Source: Obrimoposthia wandeli (Eukaryota). From it: a stretch of 64,000 bases of DNA. The DNA is taken from contig CDROCS010003230.1 of assembly GCA_977020255.1 (NCBI GenBank), forward strand, positions 62,001 to 126,000, given 5' to 3'. How positions within the stretch are numbered: position 1 is the stretch's first letter; every line of letters starts with the position of its first letter. The notes beneath the pieces are model-generated. The model saw only the letters and a list, made by a program, of their open reading frames with translations, did no database searches and was not told the origin of the DNA. The position numbers were made by a program, and so were the translations under genes. Of the stretch, positions 1,002 to 33,653 are shown piece after piece.

Positions 1002-1250
1002 ATGTCTGTTTTTTATTTGTGTTGATTGTTAATAAAATTTGTATTCAAAATTGTATTTGTTTTATAAATAGCTGCCCCATTGAAATTTAAAAATTTTATT
1101 TTGAGTTTTGATAAATTAAAAAAGAGATTTAAAATCTACTAATTAAGAGAAAATTTATGGTGTTAATTATTTTTAAAAATTTAAACTCTAACGGTGTGAA
1201 TATCGGTTATGAAAATATTCATAATTGATTGACCGTAATTAACCTTTATG

Positions 1251-1405
1251 ATCACGTGTGTAGCAACTAGGGAATAAAGAGTCTTTATTACGCATTCCTA
1301 GTTTGTAAGTACACACGTGATGTGTGACGTGTACATCTAGGGCAGCAACTACACTGATTGTGAACCATATATAAACAATCAGTGTAGTGTCATTTATCAA
1401 TTTCA
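1251..1405 (+). promoter_or_regulatory. Putative promoter of the pPolB transcription unit: two hairpins, TATA box and Inr-like site
   Basis: Imperfect hairpin 1251-1321 with ATCACGTGTGTA/TACACACGTGAT arms. A 13-bp inverted repeat (1348-1360/1376-1388) encloses TATATAAA at 1368. TCAATT follows with its A at 1399, then a GTAAGT..TTTAG intron (1421-1470) directly before ATG 1471. Confidence 0.55.
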
Positions 1406-1470: not shown

Positions 1471-1910
1471 ATGTCAAAAATTATTTTTGCCCGAAATGGA
1501 AAGAAAATATGGACCATAAAGCCTCCTTTAGTCGATATGGATGATGATGATGTCGACTTGGATGCGACACCGGTTAAAAAGTAATTTGTTTTATTAGTAT
1601 TTTTAATTTAATTTTCATTTAGCCCAGTGTCACAACAACACCAATATCGATTGCACCATGGATTGCGGATGATGCTACTAAGAAAATAAGAAGAAAACAG
1701 AAGATGCCGACAACATATGATGAGGATAATGATGATAAGAAGAATCCAAAAGTTTTTTTATCTCTTGAGAAATCTTCTCAACTTCCTTCTTCTTCTTCTT
1801 CATCTTATTCTCATTCTCATTCTCATGTTTTGTCTCCATACGACGATCATTTATATAAACTTTTTGGGGAATATAAGGGATATAAAATCTTATTCTCCCG
1901 ACTGCGATAG
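1471..1910 (+). pseudogene. Spliced low-complexity leader ORF upstream of pPolB (exons 1471-1580 and 1623-1910; needs one 1-nt indel)
   Basis: A 42-nt GTAATT..TTTAG intron lies at 1581-1622. The product has acidic, basic and Ser/His-rich tracts. Its position matches the spliced leader of element B. Confidence 0.45.
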
Positions 1911-1956
1911 CTGCCCGGTAACGCGGGGCAGTCTAACTCCTGGAATGGGGTCGCAG
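1902..1956 (+). ncRNA. Unidentified 55-nt structured motif, copy 1
   Basis: GC-rich three-stem fold (CTGCGA/TCGCAG, GCTGCCC/GGGCAGT, CTC/GGG). 51 of 55 nt are identical to the copy at 6787-6841. Confidence 0.4.
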
Positions 1957-1976
1957 AATAAGTTAATTAAATCAGA

Positions 1977-4900
1977 GGTTACCCCTTACTTTTTAAACCA
2001 GGAACACCTGTTGGGTCACCTGTTAATTCAGTAGAAAATTTCGACGTAAATGAAATATACTCGGGTTTTGAAAATATCCCGTTTAAAAATATTTTAACCA
2101 GTTAAAGAAAGCTAAAAATCAAAATATTGATTTAAGTAAACTTAAAACAGAAGGTAGGAAAGGTAAAAGATTTCGTCAGAAGCTGCGTAGATTGAGAAAA
2201 CTACCAGCAGACATAACAATATTTGCAAATTTATTAGGGTCTTGCAAACCCATTAATATTAGTCCAGGTCTGAAAATTACAGATCTGGCAAATAAATTAT
2301 ATAAAGTCTTTGAGACTGATCAAATTTATTTTAACCGTAATGGCATGCCCTTTGAAAGGGAAGCTATTATCGGTGATGTTTTACATGAGGGGCTATTATC
2401 CATGTATACCCTAAACTTCGTGGAGGAAGTAACTTATGTACATTGTACAAGTATTGCACAAACGTTAATCATGGAATAGAATGTCATAGTGTAATGCTTA
2501 AATATTATAAATTTAAAAGCGGTTTTATTTGTCCACATTGTGATGTGTTATATTGTATTGACTATCAAACATTTTATAACAATCATAAGGATCATCTGAC
2601 GTATTTTAAGTCTAAAAGGTCAGCATACAAACGTAAAGTAATGAGAGTACCAACAATAGACAACAATAAAATAGCAAAAACTAATAATTTTAATGAAGAG
2701 TTTGATGTGGTAGACTCGTGGGAACCGGATAGTGTTGTAGAAATTGATACTTATCCTGAAGTTGTAGAAATTATTGAGCCTTTAAGCCCTAATGAAATCT
2801 TAAATAATAATAATATTGATGAACTTATAGATCAGGACGAGTTTATAACAGAAAATGATTTTTTCGACTCACTCCTAACTATTACGGATGATGACTTTGA
2901 TAATATTGTTACAATTAATTCAGATAATACATTAACTTTTAACAATCAAATAGGAGGTGCAATTCAATCAAACCTTGTTTTTGATGTTAGTGGATTAAAC
3001 ATGCTTAAACTATACATTAACGATACTATGCTAACTGAACTTACTAGCAGTATAGATGTGTTTGGTCCCTGTAAAATACAGTTTGGTGTTGAAACCGAAT
3101 TTGTCAATAACGAGGGTCAACATAAAACATGGCATGTAAGCTGTAAAGCAAATATTTTTGAACTAGATTTTATCACTACAAGAACAGTTGAGCTCAACAA
3201 TAAAATTGAAATTTATAAGGATATGAGTTCGGGATGGTCAGTATTTAAAATTCTGTTGGTATCCTTTAAATTTACTGCACTTTCAAACGTAGCAGGATCA
3301 TCATTTATAAAAACCCCGGTTGCGCTTGCTAAAACACTATCTATAGTGAACGTAAATAATACTAATGATCAGTGTTTTAAATACGCTGTTCTCAGTATCC
3401 TACACTATAAAGATTTCAATCGAAACAGACAAAGAGTTGAAAACTATAATGATTATTTAAATGAACTTATATGTGAGCCTGGTCCTATGAGGATAGACGG
3501 CATCAAGACATTTGAAAAACTCAATAATATAGCGATAACAGTATTCTCCTATAAACCTACAAAGGTAGAGCCTCATAGTAGTCATCTAGTGTTTAAAAAC
3601 CCAGATGTTAATGTTATTTATAGAACGAGTCTTAAACAGTGCGAAAAAGTAGTAAACTTGTTGCTGTTGGAACAGAGCGGTAATTATCACTATACAGGGA
3701 TAACAAACCTGAATAGACTTTTAAATACTCAAAAATAAAATGTGCGTCTCTTTTGGTGTGAGAAATGTCTTTTTGGATTTCGAACCACGATTTCATATGA
3801 CAAACACAGGGCACATTGTAATATTAATACAGATTTAACAACCTTGTTTACAATGCCCAAAGAGATCAAGTGTCAATTTTCCGACTGGTCTAAATCTATT
3901 GCGCCACCATTTGTTGTATATGCCGACTTTGAGTCAATACTCGAGCCACATAATACTTTCAAACATATTCATAAACCAATATCTATAGGGATGATTTTGA
4001 AAAACAACACTAATAATTCAATACAATATTTCAGTTATTACGGTCTGCAGTGTGCTAAAAACTTTGTAGATAAATTAACTGAGTTGATAAATGGTGAAGT
4101 GGCAGATTTTTGGGTAAATAGTATTAATGTTCCTATGGTTTTTACTAATAATGACATGTTGAACTTTAGAGATTGCACTAATTGCTATCTTTGTAAAAAT
4201 TAAACGATCGTATGGTTAGAGATCATGATCATATCACGGGTAAATACTTGGGTGCGGCATGCAACAAATGCAATTTAAGTCGCAAGTTTGCAAAGAGACC
4301 GGTTTTACCTGTGGTGTTTCATAACCTTATGGGTTATGACATACATCATATTTTAAAATATGCCGACTTGAAAGGTAAATCCTTTTCAATTATCCCTAAA
4401 TCAAGTGAAAAGTTCATGTCCCTCCGTATAGAGATGAAGAGTGGGCCATTGAAATTCATTGATTCATACCTTTTACAACGTCAAGTCTTGAATCCTTAGT
4501 TTCATACTTACCAAGTTGTCCTTATACTACACAATACCTAAACCCTAATATTGCAACAAGTAAGGCGGTATTTCCGTATGAATATATTAGTGGTGTTGAT
4601 AGGCTTATGGAGACGCAGTTACCCGCTAAATCTGAGTTTCCTTCTCGAGTCACTGATCAACAATATAATGAAGCCCTAATGATGTGGACCGTATTAGGGT
4701 GTAATACTATTAAAGACTACATGCTTGAGTATATGAAACTTGACGTGTATCTCTTATGTGATGTTTTTGAGGCCTTTAGACAGAAAGTAAGGGATGATGA
4801 TAATCTAGAGGCGCTCAATTTCTTTAGTATCCCTGGTCTCAGTTGGGCTAGCGCATTAAAAACATTAGAGTATGATGTGGATTTATTGCATGATCCCGAA

Positions 4901-6238
4901 ATGTATAACATGTTTGAGGCAGGGATACGGGGAGGGATGACTTTCATCAACAAACATTACGTTAAAACAACAGATGAAACATTCCTTCTATATATTGACA
5001 TAAATAACTTATATGGTTGGGCCTTGAGTCAACCGTTACCACATACAGATTTTACATGGGTATATGACGGTTTTGAAGCGATAATTGAGCTTATAACTGA
5101 GAGGGATATTCACGGTAATATGCAGGACTTGAGTCTTAAAGAACATGGATACTTGTTGGAAATTGATTTAGGCATACCCATCAGTATTCATGATAAACTT
5201 GATGACTTACCGATTGCGCCTAATAGAGAAATCCCTCCCGGCTCAAAAGCTTCAAAGCTGTTGATGACCCATGAGGATAAAAATAATTACATCATACACT
5301 CACAACTACTACAATTTTACTTGTTTCTGGGTGCAGAAATTAAACAAGTGCATAGAGCAATAAAGTTTCATCAAGCTCCTATATTTAAAACATATATTGA
5401 TATCAATAGCCAGAAACGGGCAGAGGGTACTACTACATTTGATAAAGAGTTTTATAAACTCAAAAATAATTCAATATATGGTAAGACAGTGGAAAATCTT
5501 AAAAAGCGTAAAGATATCCGTCTTACCAAGATTGATCGTCAGTTTACTAAACTTGTTTCAAGCCCCTGGTTTAAGAAGCATACCCAAATAACCGACAATC
5601 TCAATCTTTTATTTATGCAAAAGAAAGAAATTTGTCTGGATCGCCCATCATATATTGGTCAAGCTGTGTTGGACTTATCTAAACTACGTATGTACCAACT
5701 ACAGTATAGTGATCTTGACCGGTATCGTAAGCAATATCATTGTGATATCAACATAGTTGCAATGGATACAGACTCGTTTTTCTTAGAGTGTAAGCATATA
5801 GATAAAGATGTCCTCTTAAAACAAATGATTAAAGATCAGATGTTAGATACGAGTAATTACCCGATCACACATGAGTTATTTAACGATTCTCATCGAAATG
5901 TGATTGGAAAGTTTAAAGATGAAAGCAAGGGGACAGTGCTTTATGATGAATGGGTATTTCTGAAACCTAAATGCTACTCATTGAAAACGAGTATGAGGGC
6001 TAAGGGTATCTCCCTTAAACAAACCGAAATCAGACATGAGCATTACATAAAGTGTTATGTTGATGATGAAATTATAACTGCCGGTCAGACACGTATTTTA
6101 GCTCGCAATCATCAATTATTTACAATGTATAATGATAAAATTGCGTTAAGGTGTTATGACGATAAAAGGGTTTGGCTTGAGAAAAACAAATCCGTCGCAT
6201 ATGGACACTATAGTCTAAAATCTGGGGTAACCTCTTGA
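1977..6238 (+). pseudogene. polB: Protein-primed family B DNA polymerase with N-terminal extension (ubiquitin-like, Cys/His-rich, acidic and terminal-protein regions); disrupted by several stops and frameshifts
   Basis: ExoI VVYADFES, DHDH..G..LGAACNKCN, ExoII FHNLMGYD, ExoIII YMKLDV, motif A YIDINNLYGWA, motif B KLKNNSIYGK, motif C MDTDS, KPKCY, DDKR, AYGH. Confidence 0.95.
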
Positions 6239-6487
6239 AAGTATTAACTAATATCCTCTTATTTTTAATGTGATAGTATGTATCTTTTTAATGCAATAGT
6301 ATGTATATATTTTTAATGCTATAGTATGTATATATTTTTATTGATGTTTATTTTTAATACATTGTATGTATCATAACCATGTCTTGACTTCCTACTAGCT
6401 ACTCATTGGATAATTTCATTGGATAATTTTAACAAATTCTCTATAAATATAAACACATTTCAATCAACCAATTTCTCATTATTTCAA

Positions 6488-6727
6488 ATGACTACTTCTA
6501 AAGAAAAATTGCAAGCTCTCTATGATAACCTGAGCCCTACCTTGATGGCCCAGTATACTGAAAAGTACTTTAGCTTATTTGTTGCACCAGAACTTTTTGT
6601 CTCAAGGATTGAAGAACTTTATATGTATCACCTGTTTAATGGAGACTTTAAACCTAAAGTTGCAACAATCATTAAAATAGAAGAAGAAGAAAGCATGGAT
6701 TGTGACAATGAATATAATTATGTATAA
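6488..6727 (+). CDS. Small hypothetical Polinton protein (79 aa, acidic C-terminus)
   Basis: ATG at 6488 is preceded by TATAAACA at 6448, the same spacing seen for element B genes. Confidence 0.45.
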   Translation: MTTSKEKLQALYDNLSPTLMAQYTEKYFSLFVAPELFVSRIEELYMYHLFNGDFKPKVATIIKIEEEESMDCDNEYNYV

Positions 6728-6786
6728 ACATAGACTTTTTTTTACTAAACTCCTACTATAAACAATAACGTTTCTTAAGATAAAAA

Positions 6787-6841
6787 CTGCGATAGCTGTC
6801 CGGTTATGCGGGGCAGTCTAACTCCTGGAATGAGGTCGCAG
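6787..6841 (+). ncRNA. Unidentified 55-nt structured motif, copy 2
   Basis: Direct repeat of 1902-1956. TATAAACAA begins exactly 30 nt upstream (6757) and AATTAAA follows downstream. Confidence 0.4.
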
Positions 6842-6928
6842 TACTAAGTAAATTAAATAGTTGCAAATAAAAATTTGGGACGGTCAATTATGTTTAATTT
6901 CAAAATTAAAATTTTTTAATTTCAAAAT

Positions 6929-7114
6929 NNNNNNNNNNNNNNNNNNNNNNNNNNNNNNNNNNNNNNNNNNNNNNNNNNNNNNNNNNNNNNNNNNNNNNNN
7001 NNNNNNNNNNNNNNNNNNNNNNNNNNNNNNNNNNNNNNNNNNNNNNNNNNNNNNNNNNNNNNNNNNNNNNNNNNNNNNNNNNNNNNNNNNNNNNNNNNNN
7101 NNNNNNNNNNNNNN
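6929..7114. other. Assembly gap (186 N)
   Basis: Run of N. Confidence 1.
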
Positions 7115-7195
7115 TTTTTAAACTATATACAAATGTTACAAAATATTAACCTACATAATCGTAAGTGACGCATAAGTCCAAACAAATTTCGAGAC

Positions 7196-7369
7196 GTAAA
7201 GTGTCGGTTCTAAAACAATAGCACACAAAGCCCCCCCCCCCCGAACAAGGCACAAGGAACAAAGCACATCTGTATGACTAATCAAATTTCAGATGTGCTT
7301 TGTTCCTTGTGCCTTGTTCGGGGGGGGGGGGGGGCTTTGTGTGCTATTGTTTTAGAACCGACACTTTAC
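7196..7369. repeat. Near-perfect palindrome (~77-bp arms, 17-nt loop) with poly-C/poly-G tracts; probably the subterminal hairpin of element A
   Basis: GTAAAGTGTCGG...GCACATCTG pairs with CAGATGTGC...CCGACACTTTAC; C12 versus G15 run. Confidence 0.9.
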
Positions 7370-8899
7370 ACTTCTTACGGAGTCTAAATTCTTTTTTGGG
7401 CCCTTTACTTTAATTTTAACCTCTATATATATCGCACACACTTACACATGACCTTCGTGGTCCTAATATTTTTCTGCTGATTTTATTTTAATAATATTTT
7501 AATTTCATAATTACTTTTATCTTAATTATAACCTTGCTTTCAAGGATTTTTATTTTAGTATAAAAACAATTAATTATTTTAAATTACTCAAAACCTAATC
7601 CTAACAAAAGAAATAATCGTATTTTCAAAAGAAAAGCTTCACCAAAAATTGTATATAAAATGGGACAAAATATAAAATCTTTCTGATATACTCACATGCA
7701 ACATTGTAAGATAAGCTTGGTAATCTGGGAATTTTAAAAATTGAAACATATTCACAATTTAATTTTTCATATTTTCAATATATTTATCGAAAATGAGACA
7801 AATTTTTAAAATGAAAAATAACTCTAAATGAAGCAATATATTTTGATGTTTATTAAAGAATCAGAATTTACTCTATTGATTGCAACAACAAAAAAGGACG
7901 GCAGCTTATAGTATCGCTTTCTCTATCTGCGTCCACGATTCATCTTAATTTTATTAGTTGGAGAAATGAGAAATCTTGATATACCGAGCTAGTGTAAATT
8001 TGCTCTAGGTCAATTTCACTGTCAGATATTTCGGTGCATGAGATCAAATTTGGCGAATAATTTCTAGTTGACTTGGCGTGATTTTTTGAGAATTTATTTT
8101 CACTACAATTTCACGCTGCGACTTTCTCTCCATCTAACGAAATATATTACCACGTCTACTGTGAAGAGGAATTTTCTGTCACAAACAATTAAATAGGTTC
8201 ATTTTCTAAAAAAGAACAACTTCCCCGTATTCATTGCCTCATAACTGGTGAATTTATGTTTCAAATCACATTCACTTTTACGATGTACTTTTAATTTAAT
8301 ACAATATTTATTATATGTAATGCTTGATAACGAAGTAGATAATTTTGACAACGATGTACAGGTGTGAAATCATAGATCAAACTGTTATTCATGTGGCTAG
8401 TCAGATTATTAGAAAATTCTAGTTAACTGTTTTAGATAACGCCATAACAAATAAAAACATATATTTAATCCCTTTAATGAAATAGAATATTTGTAGTCTG
8501 TGGTTTAGCTTATTACGAAAATATTATTTTAAAAAATCCAACTCATCGGGATTTTGGGATATCGACATGATTAGAAAACACATTTTATACACGAAATAAC
8601 GAGTTGACAAAAATATGAAACAACATACTTAGTTATAGCAATTAATTATTAGATACGATCTGTTATGAAATCATGAAATGTCTGTATTGGTTTCTACAAA
8701 TTTCCAATTGCTAATGTGAGCCAAGTATTTTAGCTTGTAACTTAGAAAGATATCCATATTTATCTAAGTCATGTAGCAGACTCTTACTAAAGGCAATTCC
8801 TAATATTTATCCGTATTATCATTATAAATAATAATCTCTTCAGCATCTCGTTACAGGAATAATTTGTACAAATATGTACGGAGATAATATTCGTTGTGT

Positions 8900-15200: not shown

Positions 15201-15369
15201 AGTAGGTGGATGTGTCCGGTCTACTCCACACCCCCCTCCCCCCTTGTCCTTTAAAACCGTGCATGTGTGTGGAGTGAAATTTCGTGTAGGTGTGTGGATT
15301 GAAATTTCGTGTAGGTGTGTGGAGTGAAATTTCAATCCACACACATGCACGGTTTTAAAGGACAAGGGG
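15201..15369 (+). repeat. Left TIR of element B, with an internal 34-bp-arm hairpin and two 25-bp tandem units
   Basis: Reverse complement of 26761-26904 plus one extra CGTGTAGGTGTGTGGA(T/G)TGAAATTT unit (169 versus 144 bp). Confidence 0.95.
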
Positions 15370-15508
15370 GGGCGGGATCCCCCTCCCTATAAATTTTTCG
15401 GGCGGGCTTCATTCTTGATCTACAGGCACGAAAAAACATCGGTCAGATCTATATAATTTAGAGGAGCAAAAACAAAATATGAGACAAAATTATTTTTCAA
15501 AATATTTA

Positions 15509-15913
15509 TTAAACATAAAACAACATATTGGCTTCACTCAAAGTCCAAAGAGGCTGCATTTTCCCGTCATCACCAAAATATCCATTGAGACGTATTGAGA
15601 TATTCCATAGTTCTTCATCTAGAATTGGAGCAATCAAATATCCTAGATCATCTTTAAAATCCAGACTGGGATCAGTTTCAAGCTCGAAACAATTTCCTTC
15701 ATATACATAATCAGGAATGTAAAATCCCAAAATATTTTTCAATTGATCAAAATCAGATGTTGTTAAAATTTCGATGAGATATTTTTTCTCCACTTTTGAT
15801 ATTTTCACAGGATTCATAACTCGTATAATTTGATGCCTCTTTAATATATTACATAGTTTTCCTTTTGAAATTCTTTCTGGATAATAAAAATTTGCTACAC
15901 ATCTCTTATCCAT
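15509..15913 (-). CDS. Hypothetical protein, paralog 1; possible T7 gp2.5-like OB-fold ssDNA-binding protein
   Basis: 134-aa ORF conserved in copy B2. Shares NPV.I, DF..LK, F.DD.G, W...IRL.GY and P.W with its neighbour. TATAAACA lies 37 nt upstream. The SSB call is inference from the pattern. Confidence 0.75.
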   Translation of the reverse strand: MDKRCVANFYYPERISKGKLCNILKRHQIIRVMNPVKISKVEKKYLIEILTTSDFDQLKNILGFYIPDYVYEGNCFELETDPSLDFKDDLGYLIAPILDEELWNISIRLNGYFGDDGKMQPLWTLSEANMLFYV

Positions 15914-16046
15914 TCTAAAATAAGAAAACTGATTAAAAACAATGTTTATAAAAAATACATATAAGATTCATATAAGATACAAATAAAACTGATTATTAAA
16001 TGAAAGAAACACAGTAAAACCGATTACAATTTATTACACGCAAAAG

Positions 16047-16493
16047 TTAAAACATAGAAATATGAGCACGTTCAATTTTCCACATAGGCAACTTTGTTCC
16101 CATTTCATCTTTCTTGTAACCATAAAGTCGAATTGTTAGAGTCCATTGCTTCTTTTTCGGAAACGCATCAATATCAACATATCTTCCATAGTCATCTAGA
16201 AATGCTTCATCGGGTCCTCGGATATAAAATTCGTTCTTATTGAAAGTAAAATTCGGAACTGCCTTTTCTAATTTCTGTTTAAGATATTGAAAATCTGGTT
16301 TTTGAATATTTGATAGATAGTAGCTGAACTTTCTTCTTTCAATTGTCACAGGATTTACTAAAGCAATCAGTTGAGCCTTCTTCAAGAATCTGACTTTGTA
16401 TTTGAAATATTGTTTCACTTCTTCATACATATCCTTATCCGATTCTTCAAACATTTTTTTATCATCGCTTAATACCCGTTGGCTATCGTCCAT
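16047..16493 (-). CDS. Hypothetical protein, paralog 2; possible gp2.5-like SSB (start uncertain)
   Basis: Open frame to 16523 with the first ATG at 16493. Conserved in B2 (50980-51420) and clearly paralogous to 15509-15913. Confidence 0.75.
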   Translation of the reverse strand: MDDSQRVLSDDKKMFEESDKDMYEEVKQYFKYKVRFLKKAQLIALVNPVTIERRKFSYYLSNIQKPDFQYLKQKLEKAVPNFTFNKNEFYIRGPDEAFLDDYGRYVDIDAFPKKKQWTLTIRLYGYKKDEMGTKLPMWKIERAHISMF

Positions 16494-16701
16494 CGTTGAT
16501 AATTGTATTTTATATGAATGCATTTACTGTGATTTGTCCTCCAATGGCGCATTCTTTTAAACTAATTTCTAACAAAAACATGAATCTCATTGGTTACTTT
16601 AACAAAAGCATTGAATTTGATTGGACAAATTATATCATTCAATTATAATAGGTTTGCAAGATAATTACAAGAAACGTGCAATAAAAAAGCAGGTTCAGAC
16701 A

Positions 16702-16737
16702 TATATAAAGAAGATTTTATAGAATACAATTTCAGTC
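16702..16737 (+). promoter_or_regulatory. Canonical TATA plus Inr core promoter of the TBP-like gene
   Basis: TATATAAAG at 16702 and TCAGTC with its A at 16734 (32-nt spacing); ATG at 16740. Confidence 0.65.
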
Positions 16738-16739
16738 TA

Positions 16740-17216
16740 ATGAAACTCGTAAATATAAATTATAAAGGTAGAACAGAAGATGATGTTTCGTACTTACCAT
16801 TCAATGAATGGAAGCCGAGACAATATGTGGAAAGGTTTGACAATTTCACAGTTGTTATTTTTCCTACAGGTTAGTTTTTTATTTTATTTTCATATTGAAT
16901 TCTTTTAGGAAATTGTCGTGTTATGGGATGCAAAATACCAATGCTTGGGTTCAATTTACCATTTGGAATTCAAATCACTGCAATACAATCAATCACGATT
17001 TCGGCTAATCTCGGGAAACAGATAAATCTTTTTAAAACTGCAGAGAAAATGAAAGAAGAATGCATGTTTGAACCAGAAATTTTTCCTGCTCTCAGTTATT
17101 TGAAGTTTAAACCGCTATGTGTAAATATATTTTCCAGTGGTAAAGTTATGATATTGGGATTGAAAAATTTTGATTATCCAAACATTGTTGATTTGATTTT
17201 AGAAAATATATCTTAA
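16740..17216 (+). CDS. TATA-binding-protein-like protein, 145 aa, join(16740..16869,16909..17216)
   Basis: Two TBP-type repeats: KLVNI...TVVIFPTGNCRVMGCK and IQSITISANLGKQINL...FEPEIFPALSYLKFKPLCVNIFSSGKVMILGLK (compare TBP YEPELFPGLIYRM..P.IVLLIFVSGKVVLTGAK). A 39-nt GTTAGT..TTTTAG phase-1 intron joins the exons in frame. Confidence 0.85.
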
Positions 17217-17268
17217 TACATCTTGTTATCTTTTCTATAAACAAACCCGTTTAAACTTATTGTTTTGA

Positions 17269-17541
17269 ATGAATAATACTATAAATAGAGACAATGAAGT
17301 GGATCGGCTTGCCGAAGAAATATTTTCTGGAAAAATTAGGGGTAAAGAAATTTTATCAGAATTAAAAAATAATGATATAACAAGAGATAACATTGAAATA
17401 TTGGTTAGATCACACGTTATTCGAGAATTTAGAAATCGTACACAAATAAATAAAATTATAGCCAAATATTCATTAATTAATTTTTGTATTTCATCTACAA
17501 TAGCTCTAACATTGTACATTTCAATAAGGAAACTTCTATGA
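17269..17541 (+). CDS. 90-aa hypothetical protein with a hydrophobic C-terminal segment
   Basis: ATG is preceded by TATAAACAA at 17236. C-terminus SLINFCISSTIALTLYISIRKLL. Confidence 0.55.
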   Translation: MNNTINRDNEVDRLAEEIFSGKIRGKEILSELKNNDITRDNIEILVRSHVIREFRNRTQINKIIAKYSLINFCISSTIALTLYISIRKLL

Positions 17542-17578
17542 TAATATAAACAATATTAAAAATGAAAGAGTATATGCA

Positions 17579-18226
17579 ATGGAGCTAAATAATAATGCTG
17601 TATTTCAAATAGTTGGCCCTAGTGGAAGTGGAAAGACACATTTCGTCTGTAAATTGTTGCAAAATGAATCTCTTTTCAACTCGAGTTTCAAAAATATTTA
17701 TTGGCATCATGGTGGAGGAGGGGAAAGCGGGTTAACCAAAACAGAAGTTTGCAAGTTGAAGGGTATAAAATTTATTGAAGGATTTGATGCAAATTGGTGT
17801 GAAAGATTGAAAAAAGAAGATGTAATAATAATTGATGATTTGTATGAGGAGGCTAACAAGGAATCGGACTTTAATAATTTATTTACAAAGATTGCAAGAC
17901 ATCGTGAAGTAACAGTTATATTTATCACTCAAAATCTGTTTCACCAAGGAGGTCACCATAGAACAAGAAATCTTAATGTACATTACTTAGTTTTATTTAA
18001 AAATCCTAGAGATCAAACAGTTGTTGATTTTGTGGCCAGACAGGCATTTCCTCGAAATAAGCACTTTCTAGTTGATTCATTCCACGATGCTGCTAAACAA
18101 GCACATGGGTATATATTTATTGACTTTACACAAGCTTTCCCAGATGATTTACGTGTTTTAACAGACATATTTAATTCTAAGGGAGTAAATGTTTATAAAC
18201 AAATCGAGAACAATTATAAAAAATAA
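17579..18226 (+). CDS. A32/FtsK-like genome packaging ATPase
   Basis: Walker A GPSGSGKT, Walker B IIIDDL, then ARH and ITQN motifs. Intact 215 aa. Confidence 0.93.
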   Translation: MELNNNAVFQIVGPSGSGKTHFVCKLLQNESLFNSSFKNIYWHHGGGGESGLTKTEVCKLKGIKFIEGFDANWCERLKKEDVIIIDDLYEEANKESDFNNLFTKIARHREVTVIFITQNLFHQGGHHRTRNLNVHYLVLFKNPRDQTVVDFVARQAFPRNKHFLVDSFHDAAKQAHGYIFIDFTQAFPDDLRVLTDIFNSKGVNVYKQIENNYKK

Positions 18227-18233
18227 ATTCGCA

Positions 18234-18385
18234 ATGCCTTTTACAAAGTTGATAGTAAAACGTAAAGTAAAATCTAAGAAATAAAAAAAAAGAATCATTA
18301 AGAAAAAAGAAGTGAAAAAGAAGTGAAAAAATTAATCATATCTGTAGTTAAAAATAAAAAAAAACTTAATTGGCTTCGAATATAA
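18234..18385 (+). pseudogene. Small Lys-rich protein (intact 48-aa version at 51724-51870)
   Basis: MPFTKLIVKRKVKSKK* here, versus MAFKELIVKRKRKAKPKKSEKRIIEKKEVNKLIKSVVRNKRKLKWLQI in B2. Confidence 0.55.
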
Positions 18386-18416
18386 ACAATATTTAAATTG
18401 AACCTTTTTTATTAAA

Positions 18417-18529
18417 ATGAAGAAAATACAAAGAAGCATACCCTATTTTAATGCTTTGGTCAAAGCCTCTTCTAATAAGAGAATGATTATTCTTAAAGCA
18501 TTTCCATCCTTTGTTGTAGATGATTTATT
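18417..18529 (+). pseudogene. N-terminus of a conserved small basic Polinton protein, fused to the integrase by a deletion
   Basis: B2 (51897-52225) keeps the missing part, which ends LKQNGGFIGAIFPVVASIISRIIAATRK. Confidence 0.7.
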
Positions 18530-19513
18530 TCAAGTTTCAAAATTAGCAAAAAGAACAAAACAAAATTACAAGAAAACGCAGAAATGGCTGAGCGACCAGT
18601 TAGCCTACAGTCTGAACAAGCCGATGAGAAGAAGGTTTCCAACTAGAGCTTACAAAACCAGCGGTCCTAATAATTTATGGCAAATGGATTTGATGGAGAT
18701 GATCCCATATTCTTCCATTAATAAGGGATATCGATATATTTTAACATGTATTGATGTATTTAGCAGGTTTGGTCGTGCAATTCCAGTTAAAGCAAAGTCT
18801 TCAATAGCTATGCTTGAAGCCATTAAAGAAATATTAAAAGAGGACATTCCACACAATTGCAAACTGATTTAGGAAAAGAATTTTATAATAAGCAAGTTCA
18901 ATCATTATTTAAACAAAATAATATAAATCATTACTCTGTGTTTTCACAATACAAAGCAGCAGTAGTAGAAAGATTTAATCGTACTCTAAGAAATCGAATA
19001 AAAAAGTATTTCACAAAAGAAGGAAATAAAAAATTGATCCAAGTTTTACCTAAAATAATACATGCATATAATCACTCTGAACATAGAGGTCTCAAGGGAA
19101 TGAGACCTGTTGATGTTACTAATAAAATCTCTATGGACATTTGGATGAACAGGAATAAAAAAGAAAAAATTAAAAAAGCTAAATATAAGAAAAACGAATA
19201 TGTTCGAATTTCGAAAATTAGCTCTACTCCATTTATTAAAAACTTTGATCAGAATTGGAGCGATGAAATATTTTGTATAAGTAAAATTGATCAAAAGAGT
19301 AATCCAATAATGTATACTATTAAAGATGCTGACAATAATATCGTTCACGGTAAATTTTACGAGCAAGAACTACAAGTAATATCAAATAAACCTAGCGTTT
19401 TCCGTATTCAAAAAATATTAAAATCTAAGGGTACAGGTAAACATAAACAATACTTTGTTAAATGGCATGGTTATTCAGACCCAACTTGGATATCAGCATC
19501 TAATATAATATGA
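18530..19513 (+). pseudogene. int: Retroviral-like (RVE) integrase with C-terminal chromodomain; N-terminus deleted, frameshift near 18858
   Basis: WQMDL (D), QTDLGKEF (D), AVVERFNRTL (E); YFVKWHGYSDPTWI chromodomain. Confidence 0.93.
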
Positions 19514-20575
19514 AATCTATGTATATGGTTTTACCTAGTAACGGATGTCCGAAGACTCAACCAGATAATTACGCTAGTAGCTTTATTATCGATTGGGAAA
19601 ATCCTATAAATCTCCAAGGAGAATGGGAAGCGGCTTTAACAGAATTTTCATTTTATTATTCACCAATTACTATCAGAAAAAACTCACATATTTCGTTTAC
19701 AAAAGAAGTTGATCATGAAAAATCAATTGAAGTTGTGATTGGGTTTGATAGTAAAGGAAAATTCTATTACAATTGTAAAGATAAAGAATTGAAAGTAATA
19801 TATGAAAAAAAACAAAGTCATATTTAAAAATAGACTAAAACTTTTTTTAAAACCTATTCAAATTATATTTGGATCTGATAGAGAAGCTCTTCAATTTGGG
19901 TTTGACAGTGGACATGTAGTAGGTATGAAGATATCTGATATAGCCTCATCTAAAATGTTTTAAAATGTTCCTGATAGAGTAACAAAAGTGTTTTTAGTTG
20001 AAACGAGACCAAAGTATGTAGTGGAACTGAAAATGTTTTCAAAAGATTATAAATTAGATAGTGAAGTGAATTTCTGTAAATTAATACAGAAGGAATGTAG
20101 TGAATATTTTGATAAATGTGTAACATTAAAAAATGGTAAAATAACGTTTACAGTAAAGAGCAATATAATACGAGTTTTATTTGATGATAAACTTGCTAAA
20201 AACCTTGGTTTAAACAGTAATACCTTTGAAACCGATACAATAAAAACCATAAAAGCTAAAAATAAGGCAAAACTTTTAAATGCTGTTAAGCATTTATATA
20301 TGTATACTAATTTAATAGAATCAACGCTTGTAGGAGGACAGCGAGTTCCACTTTTGAGAACAATATGGATATCTAAAAATGAAACTAGAGATGGAGATAC
20401 TGTCGGTATGTGTATAGATCAACCAATGTATCTTCCAGTTTCTCTCTTTTCTATAAACAATATTGAAGTAAATATTAGAGATGATTCTGGACAACTAATA
20501 GATTTCACGTACGGGGCCAAGACAAGTTTAACAATACATTTAAGAAAACAAAATGGCGAATCCAGCAATAATTGA
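19510..20575 (+). pseudogene. Minor capsid protein (penton/PX-like), disrupted at about 19820-19990
   Basis: YMVLPSN...F...NPINLQGEWEAALTEF N-terminus and LYMYTNLIE..LVGG..VPLLR...NNIEVNIRDDSG C-terminus. Confidence 0.85.
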
Positions 20576-20929
20576 AGCTTATAGTCAAAGCCAACAAGGT
20601 GGAGAATTACCATATATTGTTGGTAAACAATACGGATCTGGCTGGCTTAGAACATTAGGTAGATTTGCCTTTCCTCTTTTAATAGACTCAGGCGATTTAT
20701 ATCAAAATTAGGAAAGGATTACCTTTCATCTAAGGACAATAAACTAATACCAACTTTTAAGAAGCATGCGCTTGATGAACTTGATAATGTTTTACATGAA
20801 GTTGCTAATTTGATTAGAAAACGTAAATCAAATAAAAGCCAAGGAGGTAGTGGATTTAAAAGTAAAAAGAAGCAAAAAATCAATATAAACAAACGTAAGA
20901 ATGTTGAAGGAACAATATTTGCAAAATGA
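20553..20929 (+). pseudogene. Basic core-like protein with QxGG/QxGxG motifs; one frameshift near 20680
   Basis: MANPAIIEAYSQSQQGGELPYIVGKQYGSGWLRTLGRFAFP...SQGGSGFKSKKKQK. The stop overlaps the MCP ATG. Confidence 0.7.
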
Positions 20930-22155
20930 GTTGCGCCAAAACTGAATTGTGTATTTTTGATAAACCACTTCCACAAGTAGTTGTAGATAATGCTTCCTTT
21001 GAAGAAATATTTCTAGTTAACTCAGTTTCAGGAACCACTTTAACCGATTTAGAATTTAATATTAATGGTTCCAATAGCGAGTATTTAGATTTGAATGATA
21101 CTTTGCTTTATGTTCAAATAAAAGTATTAAATCGGGATGGTACTAATTTAGATGAAAATGCCGATGTAACACCTGTAAATTATCTCTTTAATTCTTTATT
21201 TAATGATGCCATTGTTACTCTTAATAATGTCAAAATTGAAGGTGGAAATTCTTCCTATGCTCATAAAGCTTTGATTGAAAGTCTTTTGAATTATAGTACT
21301 GATACTCAAAATACTAATTTGACAACCATTGGTTATGATAAAACGGTCGCAACTCACAAAGAATGGATTGCAGGTTCTAAAGCTTACGAAATGTGTGGGT
21401 CTTTGAGATTGAATTTCTTTGAACAACCGAAATATTTAATTCCCGGTGTTAATGTACATCTTCGTTTGAAACGTAATAAATGGAATTTTTCTTTGATAAG
21501 CACGGACGTTCTAAAACCTAGACTTGATATTTTGGATGCAAAATTGTATGTCCGAAGAGTTAAAACCGAGCAGTCAGTTTTAATGGCACATAATATAGGA
21601 ATGGAAAAAAACAATGCTTGTTATCCTATAATAGAAACTAAACTTATATCCTATTCTTTAGGTACGGGTACACAAGCTTTTAATAAGGATCAAATTTTTA
21701 TTGATGTAAGATTACCGAAATTCATTTTAATTTCTTTTCAAAAAACTGCAAAGTTTCTAGGAAATTATACGACAGATGCAACTCAATTTGACAATCTTAA
21801 TGTAGGTTCAGTGACACTTTCAAGAAATACTGATTATCGCGAAACATATAAAACAGATTTCGAAGGTGACGCTTATGCTTTGGCTTATACGCAATCTATT
21901 ATTCGGAATTTGGGTCAACTATATAAAAATATAAACAATGGTATTTATTTCACTGACTTTAAAAGCAACTGCCCGTTCTTCACATTTGTTTTGGCACCAG
22001 ACTTTGATATAAACCAATGTCAACTACCAAAGGATGAAAATTTACGACTAGAAATTAAGTTCAATGCAGCTTTAACACATCCTACTACGGTGCTTATTTA
22101 CGGAGTATTTGATTCGGAAATACAAATCAATAAAAACAGAACTGTCATATTATAG
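20926..22155 (+). CDS. Double-jelly-roll major capsid protein (PY), intact 409 aa
   Basis: MSCAKTELCIFD N-terminus, YLDLNDTLLYV, FEQPKYLIPGV.V.L.L.RN. Lies between the core protein and the protease. Confidence 0.92.
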   Translation: MSCAKTELCIFDKPLPQVVVDNASFEEIFLVNSVSGTTLTDLEFNINGSNSEYLDLNDTLLYVQIKVLNRDGTNLDENADVTPVNYLFNSLFNDAIVTLNNVKIEGGNSSYAHKALIESLLNYSTDTQNTNLTTIGYDKTVATHKEWIAGSKAYEMCGSLRLNFFEQPKYLIPGVNVHLRLKRNKWNFSLISTDVLKPRLDILDAKLYVRRVKTEQSVLMAHNIGMEKNNACYPIIETKLISYSLGTGTQAFNKDQIFIDVRLPKFILISFQKTAKFLGNYTTDATQFDNLNVGSVTLSRNTDYRETYKTDFEGDAYALAYTQSIIRNLGQLYKNINNGIYFTDFKSNCPFFTFVLAPDFDINQCQLPKDENLRLEIKFNAALTHPTTVLIYGVFDSEIQINKNRTVIL

Positions 22156-22156
22156 A

Positions 22157-22537
22157 ATGGAGTAAGACATATTTTAAATTTATATTTATTAATTTTTATT
22201 TAGTTCAAAACAAGTAAAAGAATCAGCAGAGAAGGTCCTGGGTGATAAATTCAATGGAGTTTATCCTATTGATATGATTCCATTTTTTCAATCTGGAGGA
22301 TACATTATCAATACTCATACTTCGAATTTACCAGGAGAACATTGGATAGCTATTTATGTTAGAGAGTGGACAATACATGTATTTGATCCACTTGCAATGT
22401 ATTATCCACACAAACTTGTTTCGACTATTCACAAAGGACGAAGAAGAGTATTTTACAACAAGATGCAATATCAGGATCCTGCGACGAGAAACTGTGGACA
22501 TTTATGTATTTTATGGTTATCGTTGCAAAACGATTAG
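22157..22537 (+). CDS. Adenain-like protease, join(22157..22161,22204..22537)
   Basis: A 42-nt GTAAGA..TTTAG intron gives MDSKQVKESAEKVLGDKFNGVYP...NTH.SNLPGEHW...FDPL...QDPATRNCGHLC. Confidence 0.9.
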
Positions 22538-22799
22538 TGTGTTATAAAAATAAATATTTTTAATGTTTTATTTTGAATAATTTTTTAAATCTCTAAAAAT
22601 ATAAGGGTAAAATAATAAAAGACATAAGACAAATTTTTTTAATACATTTATTAATCACAACATCACAATGAGATATGTCAGCAAAGATAAGGTCCAACCT
22701 AAAAAAGTATTGAAATAACAAAATGTTAGAGTCAAGGTGCCATAGGGATCTAAAATTTTAAAAAACTAAACTAAAAAAATCAAATAAAATGAAAATCGT

Positions 22800-25700
22800 T
22801 TAAATTCTGAAGTGTCCATAAGCCAGGCTAGCGTTCTTTTCTACCCAAAAGCGCTTGTCGTCATTACTACTCAAAGCGATTTTGGTTGATTTATGGGAAT
22901 ACAGTTGATGGGCTCTTGAAATAAATCTAGTTTGCTCAACGCTTTCAATACACCAAGTATCATAAACTTTCCGGTAGGTCTCATGTGTAAGATTGTTTCT
23001 TCCCACACCCTTTGCTCTCATTGAACATGTATTATTAGATGTATGTAAACTGTAGCATTTAGGGCGTAGGAAAATACAATCATCATGCGAAACCTGTCCC
23101 TCGCTTTCATCCTTAAATTTCCCGATAATGTCATTTAAACTCATAGAGTGTAGAGGATTGTTAGCGGGATATTTATGGGTATCTAGTAAGTTGTCGCTGG
23201 TAATAATTGATTATTTAAACTAACATTCCTACATTCTAAAAAAAAAGAGTCAGTGTCCCCTGCCGCGATTTTGATCTCACAATTAAATTCTTGTCGGTAT
23301 TTCTCCAATTCTATGTATTGAAGCTCATACATTCTGAGTTTAGAAATGTCTAAAACCGTTTGACCTATATAACTCGGTTGATCGAGACAAATACTCTGTT
23401 TTCCTAATAACACTGCTACCAAGTCATCTGCAATTGTAAAACTACGCTTGAAGTTGTACTTGCTAGTATATGTTATTAGTTTACGCTCATCATTGCAAAA
23501 CCGTAGACAAATACGTTTCCGCAAGTCCTCTACAGTTTTTCCAAAGAGACTATTACTTTTTAACTTGTAAAAATCTCGATCGAATTTGCAAGTGGCCAAA
23601 TTACGTTTTCTTGAATTCTTCTCAATATAGTCTTTAAACACAAAGTTTTGACTGAAGCTTATAGCACGATGAATTCGAGTAACTTTCGCTCCCAACTTTA
23701 AGTAGAATTGAAGAAGCCACCAATGCACAACATAATTCAACTTGTCTTCATGGGTTAACAATAATTTCTTAACCTTTGAATTAGGTGGGCATTGATGAAC
23801 AGGCGCTACTGGAAGATCATCTAATTTATCATGCACATTGGGAGGGATTTTTATGTCCACCTCAACCAAATAGCCGAAGTCAGATGAAACTGTATCAACT
23901 GTAGCCAAATCTGTCATCAACTTATTCAACTGATCCACATCATAAACCCACTTAAAGTTGACATGAGGTAGAGGTTGAGTAAGCGCCCACCCATACAAAT
24001 TATTAATATCGATGTACAGAATCTCCGTGGATTGATTTTTGACAACATGATGTTTGTTGACAAAAGTCATTCCACCGCGTATACCATAATCATACATTTG
24101 ATACATCGCGGGATCTTGCAGTAACTCGATATTAATTTTAAGAGTTTTTATTGCTGTTGTCTATGAAAGACCAGGTAAACTAAAGAAATACATGGGATCT
24201 AGCCCATCTTCTGCTAAAGATTTTACACGAAAGAATTCAAAAACATCAGCTAAAAGATAAATGTCTAACTTCATATAATAAAGCATATATTCTAAAAGAT
24301 TTCGACAATTATTCGCCCAAAATGTACGGGCCTCATTATAGTCTTGAAGACTTACACTTTCAAATTCAGTTATGGGTGGGATTTCAGTTGTATTTTCTAA
24401 ATCTGCAAAGGTTTTCGCAAATTTATACGGAAAAATCCCCTTATCGTTAACCGAAGCTGGGAACACTGACTGTGTAATTGGCCATGCATTTAAAGATGCC
24501 GTTAAATTTTTTAAAGAACCACTCAAAAACTGCAGAGAATCTATGAATCTTAAACTGCAGAATTCAGTATATGCAGTTAAAGATAAATATATCTCTGAAG
24601 TTTGAGGTATACATGAAATCTCCCAAGAGCTTAATGTACCCAACGCGTATTTAAGTATATGATGCAAATAATATCCTTTGAGGTTATGAAACACGATGGG
24701 AATGCGTGGTTTTTTAGGGAGACGACGGCCAAAGTTACAAAGGTTGCACGCCGCTCCCAAGTATCGCCCCATAACATGATCGTGATCTCTGATTAACTTA
24801 GACTGGGTTCCACAGAAATAACATAATCTACAAGAATTAAAATTAACCCAGTCTATGCCTGTCATGATCATTGCTTGATGAGCATTGAGATCATACCACG
24901 GTTTGACAATTGTTGTTCCTAATTCCTCTAATTTTAACATAAAATCTAAAATACAATTTGGACCGGAAAATTTATGATACTGGGTAATATTGGGGCCTAA
25001 GAATAGTAGTCCTGCCGAAGCCGGTAGGTGAATACTCTCATACTGGTCGTGCAATGCTAAAATTGACTCAAAATCTGAATACACCCTAAATTCCATGGGT
25101 ATGCATTTTGCCCAATCCCTGAATTTTTAATCCTTAGGCATGCTATATAGCGTATTGTCATCAGGATTCAGTGAACATAATGTCAGATGTTTGCTGTAAG
25201 AGAGCTCGGATCGGAACCCATGCAAACATCTATGCCACCACTTATATCTTATACTAACCGGTAAGGCTCCATTATCTAAATTTAGAAGACGATCTAAATT
25301 GGGAATTGCAGCATAATGGAATTTTTTATTATGTTCGAGCAAAATTAAGTTGACCTGAGTCCCCTCATTTTTGCTCCTATAAATTACATCTACAAAAGGA
25401 TTTTTAAAATTTTCTTCATCTGTTACTTTAACTGGGATATCAGTATTATATTTGAATACATTAATACTCAAGTTATTAAGATGTTCAAATCTTGATATCG
25501 CAGTTAATTTAACAGGAAAATATATTCCATGATACTGCAATTCATTTAAAAAAGGGGTATATTTACTGACATGCTCTCTATGCTCAGTAATTACATCCCT
25601 TTTGAGGATAGCCAACACGCTATACAGAAAGCAAAGGTTATCACTGTTTTGTACGTTAACAATGGAACGTGAAAGTTGAAGAGATCTAGGTGAAGGAATG

Positions 25701-26040
25701 TATGAACTCCCCGAAAGATATATCATGTCAGTGAACTTTGTTAGAACAAAGCTAACATCGTGAATTCTAACTAGAGTCCATCCACTACTTAACTCGCTAT
25801 AATTAGCAATTTTTTCATCCAGGTTTCTTCCAATTTCAGTTACAAAATTATCATAAAAAACAGTTGCTTTATGTGAAATTACCCAAGTTTTAGTTTCCTC
25901 ATTGACATTTTTAAACTGCACTGTTGCGCAAAATTGAACCTTAGCCTGTCCTAATTTAGTCACTTCTGATTTTAAAAGATTTTCAATATTTGAATCTACA
26001 CCTACGTTTAATAAAATTTCATTTCCTAATGGCACCTTAA
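22800..26040 (-). pseudogene. polB: Protein-primed PolB of element B (several stops and frameshifts)
   Basis: VYSDFES, DHDHVMGRYLGAACNLC, FHNLKGY, YMKLDI, YIDINNLYGWA, KLKSNSLFGK, GDTDS, RPKCY, DDKR, AYGH. Confidence 0.95.
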
Positions 26041-26086
26041 CTATAACACATTTATTATTTAGGTGATACTCTATAGTAGTACCGTT

Positions 26087-26724
26087 TTATCTACGTTTTT
26101 TGGGTGGGACCTTATTAAGAAATCGGCCTCGCCTCTTTCTTCCGTTTGTCGCTGACAAACCTCCCCCTAATTGAACGGGAAGACAACTATTTATATTAAT
26201 AGTTGAGACAATTGCAGCTGATGTTGAAGGTGCTGCTATTGGTGATGCTGCCGATGTTGAGGCAATTGCAGCTGATGTGGAAGGTGCTGCCGATGTTGAG
26301 GCAATCGTAGCTGATGTTGAAGGGGCTACTGTAGCAGGTGCTGCCGATGTTGATGAGACAGTGGCAGTTGTAGAGGCTGCATTTGAAGCTGACCTTGCCG
26401 ATGAAGAAGCGGCTGTTGTAGAGGCTGCATTTGAAGCTGATCTTGCCGATGAAGAAGCGGCTGTTGTAGAGGTTAGTGCTGCTGAAATAAATATATTAAA
26501 AAATAAATATATTTTTTTAAATTACCTCTAAGGCGTGCTAACATCGATGTAGGCACTCGCGATGGTGGAGGCATATCTGTTGTAGCAGATGACGATTGTA
26601 TAACGGTATTTCCTGAATAAAAAATAAAAATAAAATATATAATTTAAAAATAATAATAAAAAATACCTAATGAAGGAAATCCAAGTTGAGCTGGAATGAA
26701 GTCCTCTTCATTGATGGAATCCAT
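26087..26724 (-). CDS. Spliced Ala/Ser/Thr-rich leader of pPolB: exons 26724-26667, 26612-26526 and 26481-26087 (179 aa, ending in an NLS-like PPKKRR)
   Basis: Two phase-1 GT..CAG introns (54 and 44 nt) keep an open frame. Contains tandem STTAASSSARSASNAA repeats and QLGGG. A possible third intron (26094-26041) joins it in frame to polB. Confidence 0.7.
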
Positions 26725-26760
26725 CCAGCTGACGTCCGGTCTAATCCACACACCCCTCCA

Positions 26761-26904
26761 CCCCTTGTCCTTTAAAACCGTGCATGTGTGTGGAGTGAAA
26801 TTTCACTCCACACACCTACACGAAATTTCACTCCACACACATGCACGGTTTTAAAGGACAAGGGGGGAGGGGGGTGTGGATTAGACTGGACACATCCACC
26901 TACT
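26761..26904 (-). repeat. Right TIR of element B
   Basis: Ends ...CACATCCACCTACT; folds into a hairpin spanning 26734-26891. Confidence 0.95.
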
Positions 26905-31927: not shown

Positions 31928-33311
31928 CACAATCATTGAATCTCGGAATTACAAGGCTTTGTCAGAAAATTACAAATAGTCAGTTAAAACCTTGAAATAT
32001 CAATGATCAATAAAGTGTAATTGAAACTTTAAATAATATTTTAAACACCCTTAAAATCGCAAAGGACAAAATTTACCATTACAATTTGGCATGAAGTAAT
32101 AAGAAGCTTTCTTTTGCATATTTTGTCGTATTTTATGTTTTAAATTGTCTTTTTATGCTACACGTTTTTGGCAAAACACCAAACCTTAATTTTAGTGAAG
32201 TTGGAACGAAAAATATCCAAACGAAAGTAGTATCTCAGATTCTTTAAATATATTGAGCAACAGTCGAGATCGAAGATACTATCAATAAAATCAGCTACAT
32301 TCACCATGAAAAGGAAATTTGACCATCGTAGCATTTGAAATAGAAAATAGCAATAAGAAATATATCTTTGTGTTCTGTCACAGCCGCCTGATAAACAGTT
32401 AATGAAGTTGTGTACACTTGTTCCCAATCAATCTGGCGTCATATTTTCACATTGACTATCAATATCGATTAACGAATGTATCAGATATTTAATCAAATTC
32501 TAATTGTGCACTCTGTCGCCAATCGATATTTCAAGTTAGCATGAAATTATATACCCAGTTTGAACAAGAATGACCGTGGAATAACTCGGTGTGAAATTGC
32601 ATAAATCTGAATTCTAAAAATTAATTTTGTCCTGTGCGATTTGAACCGTTTTTTGGCTTAACGTATGAAAAGTTTTCTCAAACAATTCTTAACGACATAC
32701 TTCAAGGTTAATTTGATTTTCGTAATATAACTTGATTGGTTGAATCTAAAAACTTATAGTTACCTGATATGAGACAATTGTCTGATGAGGATAAAGATGA
32801 AATTGTTTTGCGGTGTCAGGAAATAAAAAATACCGGTCTCAACGTGTTAACAGTCAATGATAGAATTGCAAAATTATTCTTTAAGTGACATGAATCAAAT
32901 TCAACGCAAAAAGGTTTTCTAGTAACACAGAATTGCTGAAATGAAGGGTGTTTACTGCGATACAAAGCAAAAATAGTGTAAGTCAATTTTTGTCTAATTT
33001 TTGTTGTTGTTTATTATGAACAAAGCGATAAAGTGAAAAAATTTAAACAACATTAAAGTGTTTATAGATTAACATTGTTTACTAAATTGTTTTATTTACA
33101 TAAATACGACAATCAAAATTTTCGAAAGTGTAAAACCAATCAATTTAAATAGTCTAGAAATAGGCAGATGATACTTTAAAAAATTATTCTACTTAATTAA
33201 AAAATCAATAAATTTCAAAGCTTGATTGCTACAGAATTGTGATATACACCACTCTTGCTTTATAATGCAGCTTGTGTACAGAGGAGCATTCTGCAGGGAG
33301 AAGGAACAAGG

Positions 33312-33653
33312 TCAGGGCACCAGGCGCTTACGACTGCGGCCGGTCCAGAGGAAGCACTTAGAGTCCCAGGAAGCACTGGCAATGGCGACGCCAGAAGGGT
33401 CAGTCTTTACGACGCTTACGCGGTTGTCATGCCCAGATAGAGTGCCGACATTCTCCTCTCGCAGCAGGTCCCAGAGGTGACAGGTGTAGTCGTCGTAGCC
33501 GGCACAAATGAGCCGACCAGACCTAGACACCGTCACACAAGTGCAGCCTGACTTGACGAAGTCGTCCCGGTAGATGGCGATGCACTGGTCCGATCGCAGG
33601 TCCCATAGACGACAGTCGCGATCGTCAGAGCCACTCACGAAGCCGAACGAGGC
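33312..33653 (-). CDS. GNB1: G-protein beta subunit, exon 3
   Basis: ASFGFVSGSDDRDCRLWDLRSDQ...AGYDD...GHDNRVS...SASWD. CTGCAG acceptor. GNB1-4 class rather than GNB5; exact orthology is uncertain. Confidence 0.93.
   Translation of the reverse strand, partial: ASFGFVSGSDDRDCRLWDLRSDQCIAIYRDDFVKSGCTCVTVSRSGRLICAGYDDYTCHLWDLLREENVGTLSGHDNRVSVVKTDPSGVAIASASWDSKCFLWTGRSRKRLVP

Follow-up and report, generated by a model that had tools for sequence, protein, structure and literature searches.

The 64,000-nt stretch of DNA analysed here (the window; Obrimoposthia wandeli, contig CDROCS010003230.1, positions 62,001 to 126,000) carries a Polinton/Maverick, in which pPolB, a retroviral-type integrase, an A32-like ATPase, capsid, protease and terminal inverted repeats (TIRs) are all present, with the capsid, protease and A32 matches at modest E-values. 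Two copies of a 55-nt motif lie in this element, one in its middle and one in its right TIR. Our analysis, whose scope is one Polinton family in one genome, revealed that the motif is a real, family-wide and uncatalogued element, and that its reading as a TATA-driven RNA is better supported than in the original prediction, an earlier note on this DNA. The motif copies and the features beside them are the following, L031 being a locus in the upstream part of the same element:

1902-1956, plus strand: middle copy of the motif, 55 nt
6787-6841, plus strand: TIR copy of the motif, a predicted three-way junction, with an inverted twin in the left TIR of other element copies
6757-6766, plus strand: TATAAACAAT promoter box, 30 nt ahead of the motif where the right TIR has its inner edge
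1872-1876, plus strand: TATAA 30 nt ahead of the middle copy, not a TATAAACA box, with codon-like variation
6842-6871, plus strand: conserved tail of the TIR copy, with TAAGT, ATTAAA at 6852-6857 and AATAAA at 6866-6871
1957-1972, plus strand: conserved tail of the middle copy, with ATTAAA at 1966-1971
L031:4159-9360, window 1370, 6448 and 6757, and window 15950-20884: sites of the gene-start box TATAAACA(A)

The coordinates of both copies were borne out, as were the four differences between them (middle versus TIR copy, motif positions 13 C/T, 19 A/T, 21 C/T and 47 G/A). Their likeness continues for ~16 nt 3' of the motif, and the 23-nt motif core, with up to three mismatches allowed, gave two matches in the window and none in 100 shuffles. 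Both copies are richer in GC (64% and 58%) than the element (33%), and an AUG at 6830 in the TIR copy opens five codons. In contigs from four runs of one sample, the middle motif displayed one variant at 5% or above among the rows listed, which is the TIR state at position 47.

Across the 1.35-Gb genome, a 21-nt core of the motif has 3320 exact matches (control, 0), mostly three per element, and the element is present in about a thousand copies. Clusters account for 91 of the first 100 listed among the 3320 matches, with 61 of them in groups of at least three, and none of the 44 clusters faces inward. The three copies per element, one per TIR facing outward and one in the middle, are all sense to the overlying genes; the outer ones form the inner part of a TIR of ~550-630 nt (seven left/right pairs), and both terminal genes run outward, with their stops 60-120 nt ahead of the motif. 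The earlier picture of two copies bracketing pPolB therefore holds for the window and fails for the element, which has three; the window's own element is without the left copy, and the end of another Polinton family stands there instead. A fourth, expanded motif copy in 1068-1346 was considered and rejected, its common 10-mer being confined to young lineages. Since all inspected copies in the genome but one chance match sit in this Polinton, the case that had been named as refuting, a host interspersed repeat, is unsupported. The surrounding features of the element are as follows:

6712-7375, plus strand: right TIR, inner edge approximate, ending in a ~170-nt hairpin
6488-6727, plus strand: small terminal open reading frame (ORF) of 79 aa running outward, stop 60 nt ahead of the motif, no Pfam match
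1471-6238, plus strand: leader and pPolB region, broken into several frames in the window, also on both sides of the motif
1348-1388, plus strand: conserved hairpin, by fold prediction, enclosing a TATAAACAAT box (1370) and lying ahead of the leader-pPolB unit

The TIR copy stands behind a box that marks gene starts in this element. The word TATAAACA occurs at 13 sites in 14 kb of the element against ~2.3 expected, all gene-sense. For seven of the 13, an ORF begins 31-46 nt further on (P 4e-5; background 0.086); of the other six, two precede genes whose 5' regions are longer, two are buried in ORFs and two belong to the TIR. Genes of a neighbouring Polinton family are preceded by the same box, and in two or more Polinton families of the genome TATAAACA(A) was found 29-46 nt ahead of ORFs, so that a gene-start box common to several Polinton families of this host is a further yield of the analysis. 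Among 30 old TIR copies, the exact TATAAACAAT is present in 20, a TATAAA variant in six and neither in four, and of the 13 boxes the TIR box alone precedes a GC-rich stable fold (-23.6 kcal/mol vs -2 to -10). TATAA does start 30 nt ahead of each copy in the window, at 1872 and 6757, as had been noted, but its upkeep differs: 23 of the 30 old TIR copies retain it, against 8 of 30 old middle copies (26 of 30 young ones), and in the middle copy the word probably arises incidentally from the codons there.

As to the polymerase involved, no B box was found within 600 nt of either copy, and the strict A-box pattern is unmatched, positions 7-17 being similar to it by eye with two mismatches. The first TTTT follows at +89 in the middle copy and +126 in the TIR copy, so that the structure does not end in a T4 terminator. 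Given the missing B box and the differing place of the first TTTT, polymerase II would be more likely than polymerase III to transcribe a motif RNA.

At its 3' side, the motif is joined to a polyadenylation-type hexamer. AATAAA and ATTAAA are the two canonical forms of the poly(A) hexamer, and one or the other stands behind 64 of 74 copies that were chosen by motif variants and not by tail; counts of 30/30 from sets anchored on the tail are no evidence. The AATTAAA noted behind both window copies was borne out in its ATTAAA, which starts at 1966 and 6852. In all three placements the hexamer lies 9-10 nt behind the motif. The tail hexamers of the TIR copy are the first canonical hexamers past the terminal-gene stop, and the first hexamer after that stop is the motif's at the right end and at seven of seven left ends. 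In the middle copy the hexamer is AATAAA in old lineages and ATTAAA in young ones; in old middle copies the motif is additionally followed at once by GTAAGT, a donor-like word with an acceptor-like stretch 45 nt on, while young copies are without the GT.

The three-way junction on the plus strand is a predicted, unproven fold. In isolated motifs, the helices P1 and P2 form with pair probability ~1, as had been proposed, whereas P3 is in part uncertain, with probabilities of 0.4-0.97 and two registers; in the middle copy, flanking sequence competes with P1. The claimed preference for the plus strand was confirmed (z -3.1 and -3.2 for the two window copies, against -1.1 and -1.7 on the minus strand), and the motif has the lowest energy among 458 windows in a sliding scan of the element. 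The argument drawn earlier from wobble pairs proved weak, as position 21 lies in or beside the P2 loop, the pair at 47 hangs on the register of P3, and a deep TIR lineage breaks an outer P1 pair. Variants in P2 length (34 and 24 matches) were, in the 12 distinct cases inspected, decayed copies of the Polinton family plus one chance match, and cores with an altered P2 arm fell in the same family in nine of nine cases. A search for processed, A-tailed motif copies gave six of six distinct loci that are A-run expansions inside the TIR context. One TIR copy, L174:1497-1558, has a P2 arm rewritten to pair better, as from template switching at a hairpin.

Comparison of lineages suggests that the motif is likely constrained at the nucleotide level, with moderate support. 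In 30 old middle copies, shared variant sites number 1/55 in the motif against 56/202 just upstream (P 4e-7), and motif positions 29-46 are free of shared variants in either placement. Across the old lineages that were sampled, fixed differences between middle and TIR copies are confined to positions 19 and 21 (P 0.001 with the background rate of the TIR; 0.015 when all four differences are counted), and because the two types differ at only two fixed positions, drift and ongoing conversion are both disfavoured. A tree of the TIR flanks, built from 24 of the 30 old copies and six young ones (six old copies without the outer anchor were dropped, and bootstrap was not settled), places three lineage-level changes in the motif, at 13, 47 and 54, along a backbone of ~0.17 changes per column. 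Variants at P1 position 4 are C to T in 50 of 52 cases, a CpG-type decay, and the partner of this position has also changed in four of 30 copies fetched.

The middle copy lies inside coding sequence. In most genomic copies the motif stands within an open frame running from the leader into the N-terminal region of pPolB, with the AUG at 1945-1947 in frame. Of the 30 copies that match best, 25 keep this frame open over at least 100 codons upstream of the motif, often far downstream too; in 30 older middle copies, chosen by their 3' flank pattern, it is open for at least 40 codons in 17, against 1 and 0 for the other two frames. The overlap of the motif with the UAG of the leader (1908-1910), reported from the window, is real there and not general, this codon closing a long leader frame in just two of the 30 best-matching copies, of which the window's own broken copy is one. 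Since the frame is open in most copies and the UAG rarely closes the leader, the stop-codon readthrough element suggested in the original prediction was rejected. None of the retrieved homologs matches the peptide encoded by the motif, and the closest pPolB relatives begin further downstream than the motif. A short intron is predicted near 1582-1622 in the leader-pPolB region. The pPolB frame also includes an extra N-terminal domain (1945-2480), ubiquitin-like by eye, which is missing from the closest pPolB relatives and for which one 164-aa homolog was found.

Collectively, we tentatively prefer a reading, to which we give somewhat less than an even chance, in which the motif is the folded 5' part of a ~85-100 nt TATA-driven polymerase II RNA and also a 3'-end cassette. 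For the TIR copies, an element-encoded small RNA is likely and indirectly supported, because the motif sits there between a gene-start box and a poly(A)-signal sequence. The small virus-encoded RNA first envisaged as VA-like thus retains indirect support as a small RNA, from the box and hexamer at the TIR, while its polymerase III character becomes less likely, there being neither a B box nor a fixed TTTT. The alternative proposal of a processing signal is compatible with all three placements.

Mechanistically, a short RNA would run outward from each end, with the motif as its folded 5' part. As the element's ORFs begin 31-46 nt behind the box, initiation may occur at or within 3 nt of the first base of the motif, possibly at G3, in which case the two outer P1 pairs would be dispensable, as in one lineage. 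As the spacing to the hexamer is constant at the three sites, fold and hexamer may act jointly in 3'-end formation, the fold, TAAGT and hexamer forming one cassette, most likely through a bound protein, and the TIR copies may also end the outward-running terminal mRNAs. The least certain steps are that the middle copy would be an early poly(A) site holding pPolB low, and that the short TIR RNA could tune this site by binding the same factor. A stronger version, which we regard as unlikely, is a Polinton small non-coding RNA gene in the TIRs, the polymerase II counterpart of VA RNA, with the same fold serving as an operator in the polymerase mRNA. If true, it would constitute an RNA switch setting the replication of an element that numbers about a thousand copies, and in its boldest form the fold would be a self-cleaving ribozyme of a new class.

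Several observations weigh against the preferred small RNA and 3'-end cassette. The sister Polinton families tested in this genome are without the motif, and no transcript of it was observed; the contigs from the four runs showed no transcript starts, ends or predicted splice joints and give no verdict on expression. Two of the 13 TATAAACA boxes are buried within ORFs, and the word can therefore not mark a promoter at every site. Conservation is moderate when set against local backgrounds, as for the middle motif and the downstream ORF (1/55 vs 94/1443 shared variant sites, P 0.12); other 55-nt coding bins are conserved to the same degree, and constraint on the protein may account for the upkeep of the middle copy's tail. 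In the 30 old TIR copies, the motif has 6/55 shared variant sites against 72/385 elsewhere in the TIR (P 0.09), and the change at position 54 breaks pair 2-54 in the deepest TIR clade. The motif's z-score is unexceptional in the sliding scan of the element. Finally, the covariation test that had been called for was not significant: with one double change among nine sequences, 127 of 500 shuffles scored as high, in a test inside one family of very similar sequences.

Among known viral systems, the motif may function in the manner of a viral small RNA or of a retroviral cassette of TATA, structure and poly(A) signal. Adenovirus VA RNA and the EBERs of Epstein-Barr virus are made by polymerase III, measure ~160 nt, contain A and B boxes and terminate in a U run. 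A motif RNA would be similar to them as a small RNA of a DNA-virus type of element, structured and with its 5' and 3' ends paired, but the likeness to an A box is only partial, a B box and a fixed T4 are missing, and a TATA box and poly(A)-type hexamer are present instead. The retroviral R region combines a TATA, a 5' structure of the size of TAR (trans-activation response element) and a poly(A) signal. Shared with it are a ~55-nt structure 30 nt behind a TATA, a hexamer 10-15 nt on and a position at both ends of a transcription unit, while the differences comprise a DNA element with inverted rather than direct terminal repeats, a three-way junction rather than a hairpin, and the lack of an Rfam match; no reverse transcriptase was found among the ORFs scanned of the element. 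Polintons are related to adenoviruses, according to PMC11071296. In mimivirus and the Sputnik virophage, hairpin polyadenylation signals mark transcript 3' ends, a case of such a role for a structure in a relative of Polintons (PMC6723459). The motif would have a similar role, but differs from these hairpins, which giant-virus machinery reads, in being a conserved sequence ahead of a canonical host-type hexamer and in occurring at three places only.

A cis-only mRNA element acting in 3'-end formation, export or stability, located in the 3' untranslated regions of the terminal genes and in the pPolB mRNA, would account for three copies that are all sense to the overlying genes and stand ahead of a first or internal hexamer. 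Position-flexible viral stability elements of this kind exist, with the hepatitis B virus (HBV) post-transcriptional regulatory element (PRE) near the 3' end and human cytomegalovirus (HCMV) SL2.7 near the 5' end (PMC11508327). CNGGN stem-loops, short cis-elements of DNA-virus RNAs that are active at 5' or 3' positions, recruit ZCCHC14-TENT4 or Smaug (PMC11508327, PMC4053848), and the motif would resemble them, its P3 loop region reading CUGG. It lacks their pentaloop, however, and of the versions tested only the young TIR variant forms a 7-nt CNGG loop. A loop of the Smaug type (CNGG at the 5' side of a 4-8-nt hairpin loop; PMC4053848) was not supported, its probability being 0.38-0.47 in the young TIR version and 0 in the middle copy and in three of three old TIR copies. 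Against a cis-only role, under which the TIR box would be silent, stand this restriction of the loop and the upkeep of a gene-start box 30 nt before the TIR copy, which the role leaves unexplained, and we consider it rather doubtful.

The middle copy could instead be a captured 5' fragment, once the promoter, structured 5' untranslated region and start codon of a gene lying ahead of pPolB, of which the TIR copy would be a duplicate with little function. For the domain that follows the motif, the nearest homolog starts a few residues past the motif's AUG, related pPolBs are without a leader, the donor-like GTAAGT directly follows the motif in old middle copies, and TIR conservation by itself is not significant, all of which fit such an origin. 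It is nonetheless improbable, given that the TIR motif has only three lineage-level changes along its backbone, that TIR and middle copies have only two fixed differences, and that positions 29-46 are without a shared variant in both placements.

About equally improbable is an undescribed self-cleaving ribozyme class or an RNase P/Z substrate, which would cut at the element ends and early in pPolB. Its appeal lies in the motif's size, the sharp 5' boundary at the closing helix, the invariant junction and loop residues 29-46 and the placement at transcript ends. The ribozyme families in Rfam include HDV-like (hepatitis delta virus-like), twister, twister sister, pistol, hatchet and hairpin, and none of those in the database gave a covariance-model match to the motif at E<=10; the hammerhead core (CUGANGA, GAAA) is absent from both strands of both copies, in agreement with the by-eye verdict that the motif fits neither hammerhead, HDV nor twister. 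Moreover, a cut 5' of the conserved poly(A) hexamer would take off the tail. A tRNA origin was not supported: ARAGORN found 0 genes in the window, and the best alignment to 40 tRNAs, bacterial-type and not the host's, was not significant (P 0.36). The best tRNA matches of the assembly (L246-L275) are bacterial-type, with encoded CCA and some tandem arrays, and for this reason the assembly likely includes bacterial contigs.

The least probable of the alternatives, a DNA-level site (for protein binding or as a single-stranded fold) in replication, packaging or integration, draws on the presence of the motif in both TIRs, on the element's other strong hairpins and on a plus strand that also folds as DNA (-13.7 and -11.2 kcal/mol), but it is opposed by the third copy, which lies within coding sequence at a distance from the ends, by the fixed spacing to a poly(A)-type hexamer, the absence of the motif from sister families and a likeness to Polinton termini that was not significant (P 0.11-0.47).

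Searches outside the family yielded no homolog. The proposed Rfam cmscan check matched no family over the motif at E<=10. A spaced motif pattern gave 15 matches in viral contigs, none with the closing helix, and 39 in metagenome contigs, none convincing, while the exact 18-nt core had 0 matches in viral contigs. Related loci sought through pPolB numbered 0 and then one, a distant locus without the motif, and a covariance model run over the window, 18 kb upstream and 10 sister-family loci recovered only the two window copies. The literature searched, with most subscription papers outside it, described no structured RNA or small RNA gene for Polinton, Maverick or adintovirus.

Other parts of the element are also rich in structure. 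A near-perfect ~170-nt hairpin (window 7196-7369) closes the TIR and is found at both ends of other copies, and the spacer between the protease and leader genes (window 1055-1405) is strongly structured (z -7.8), with a pre-miRNA-like ~70-nt hairpin at 1251-1321. Further upstream, L031:3831-4163 (+) encodes a TBP-like protein (TATA-binding protein; Pfam TBP, E 2.9e-13); sister Polinton families have an ORF start similar to that of this gene, and a literature search for polinton and TATA-binding protein returned no work on animal Polintons by title. It is followed at L031:4199-5104 (+) by an inhibitor-of-apoptosis gene with BIR and RING domains. Two more Polintons, at window 15201-26904 and 50394-59067, belong to other families; each possesses TIRs and lacks the motif. 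Host exons, GC-rich, lie at window 33274-33669, 38945-39037 and 48523-49104, the last of which matches the G-protein beta WD40 family.

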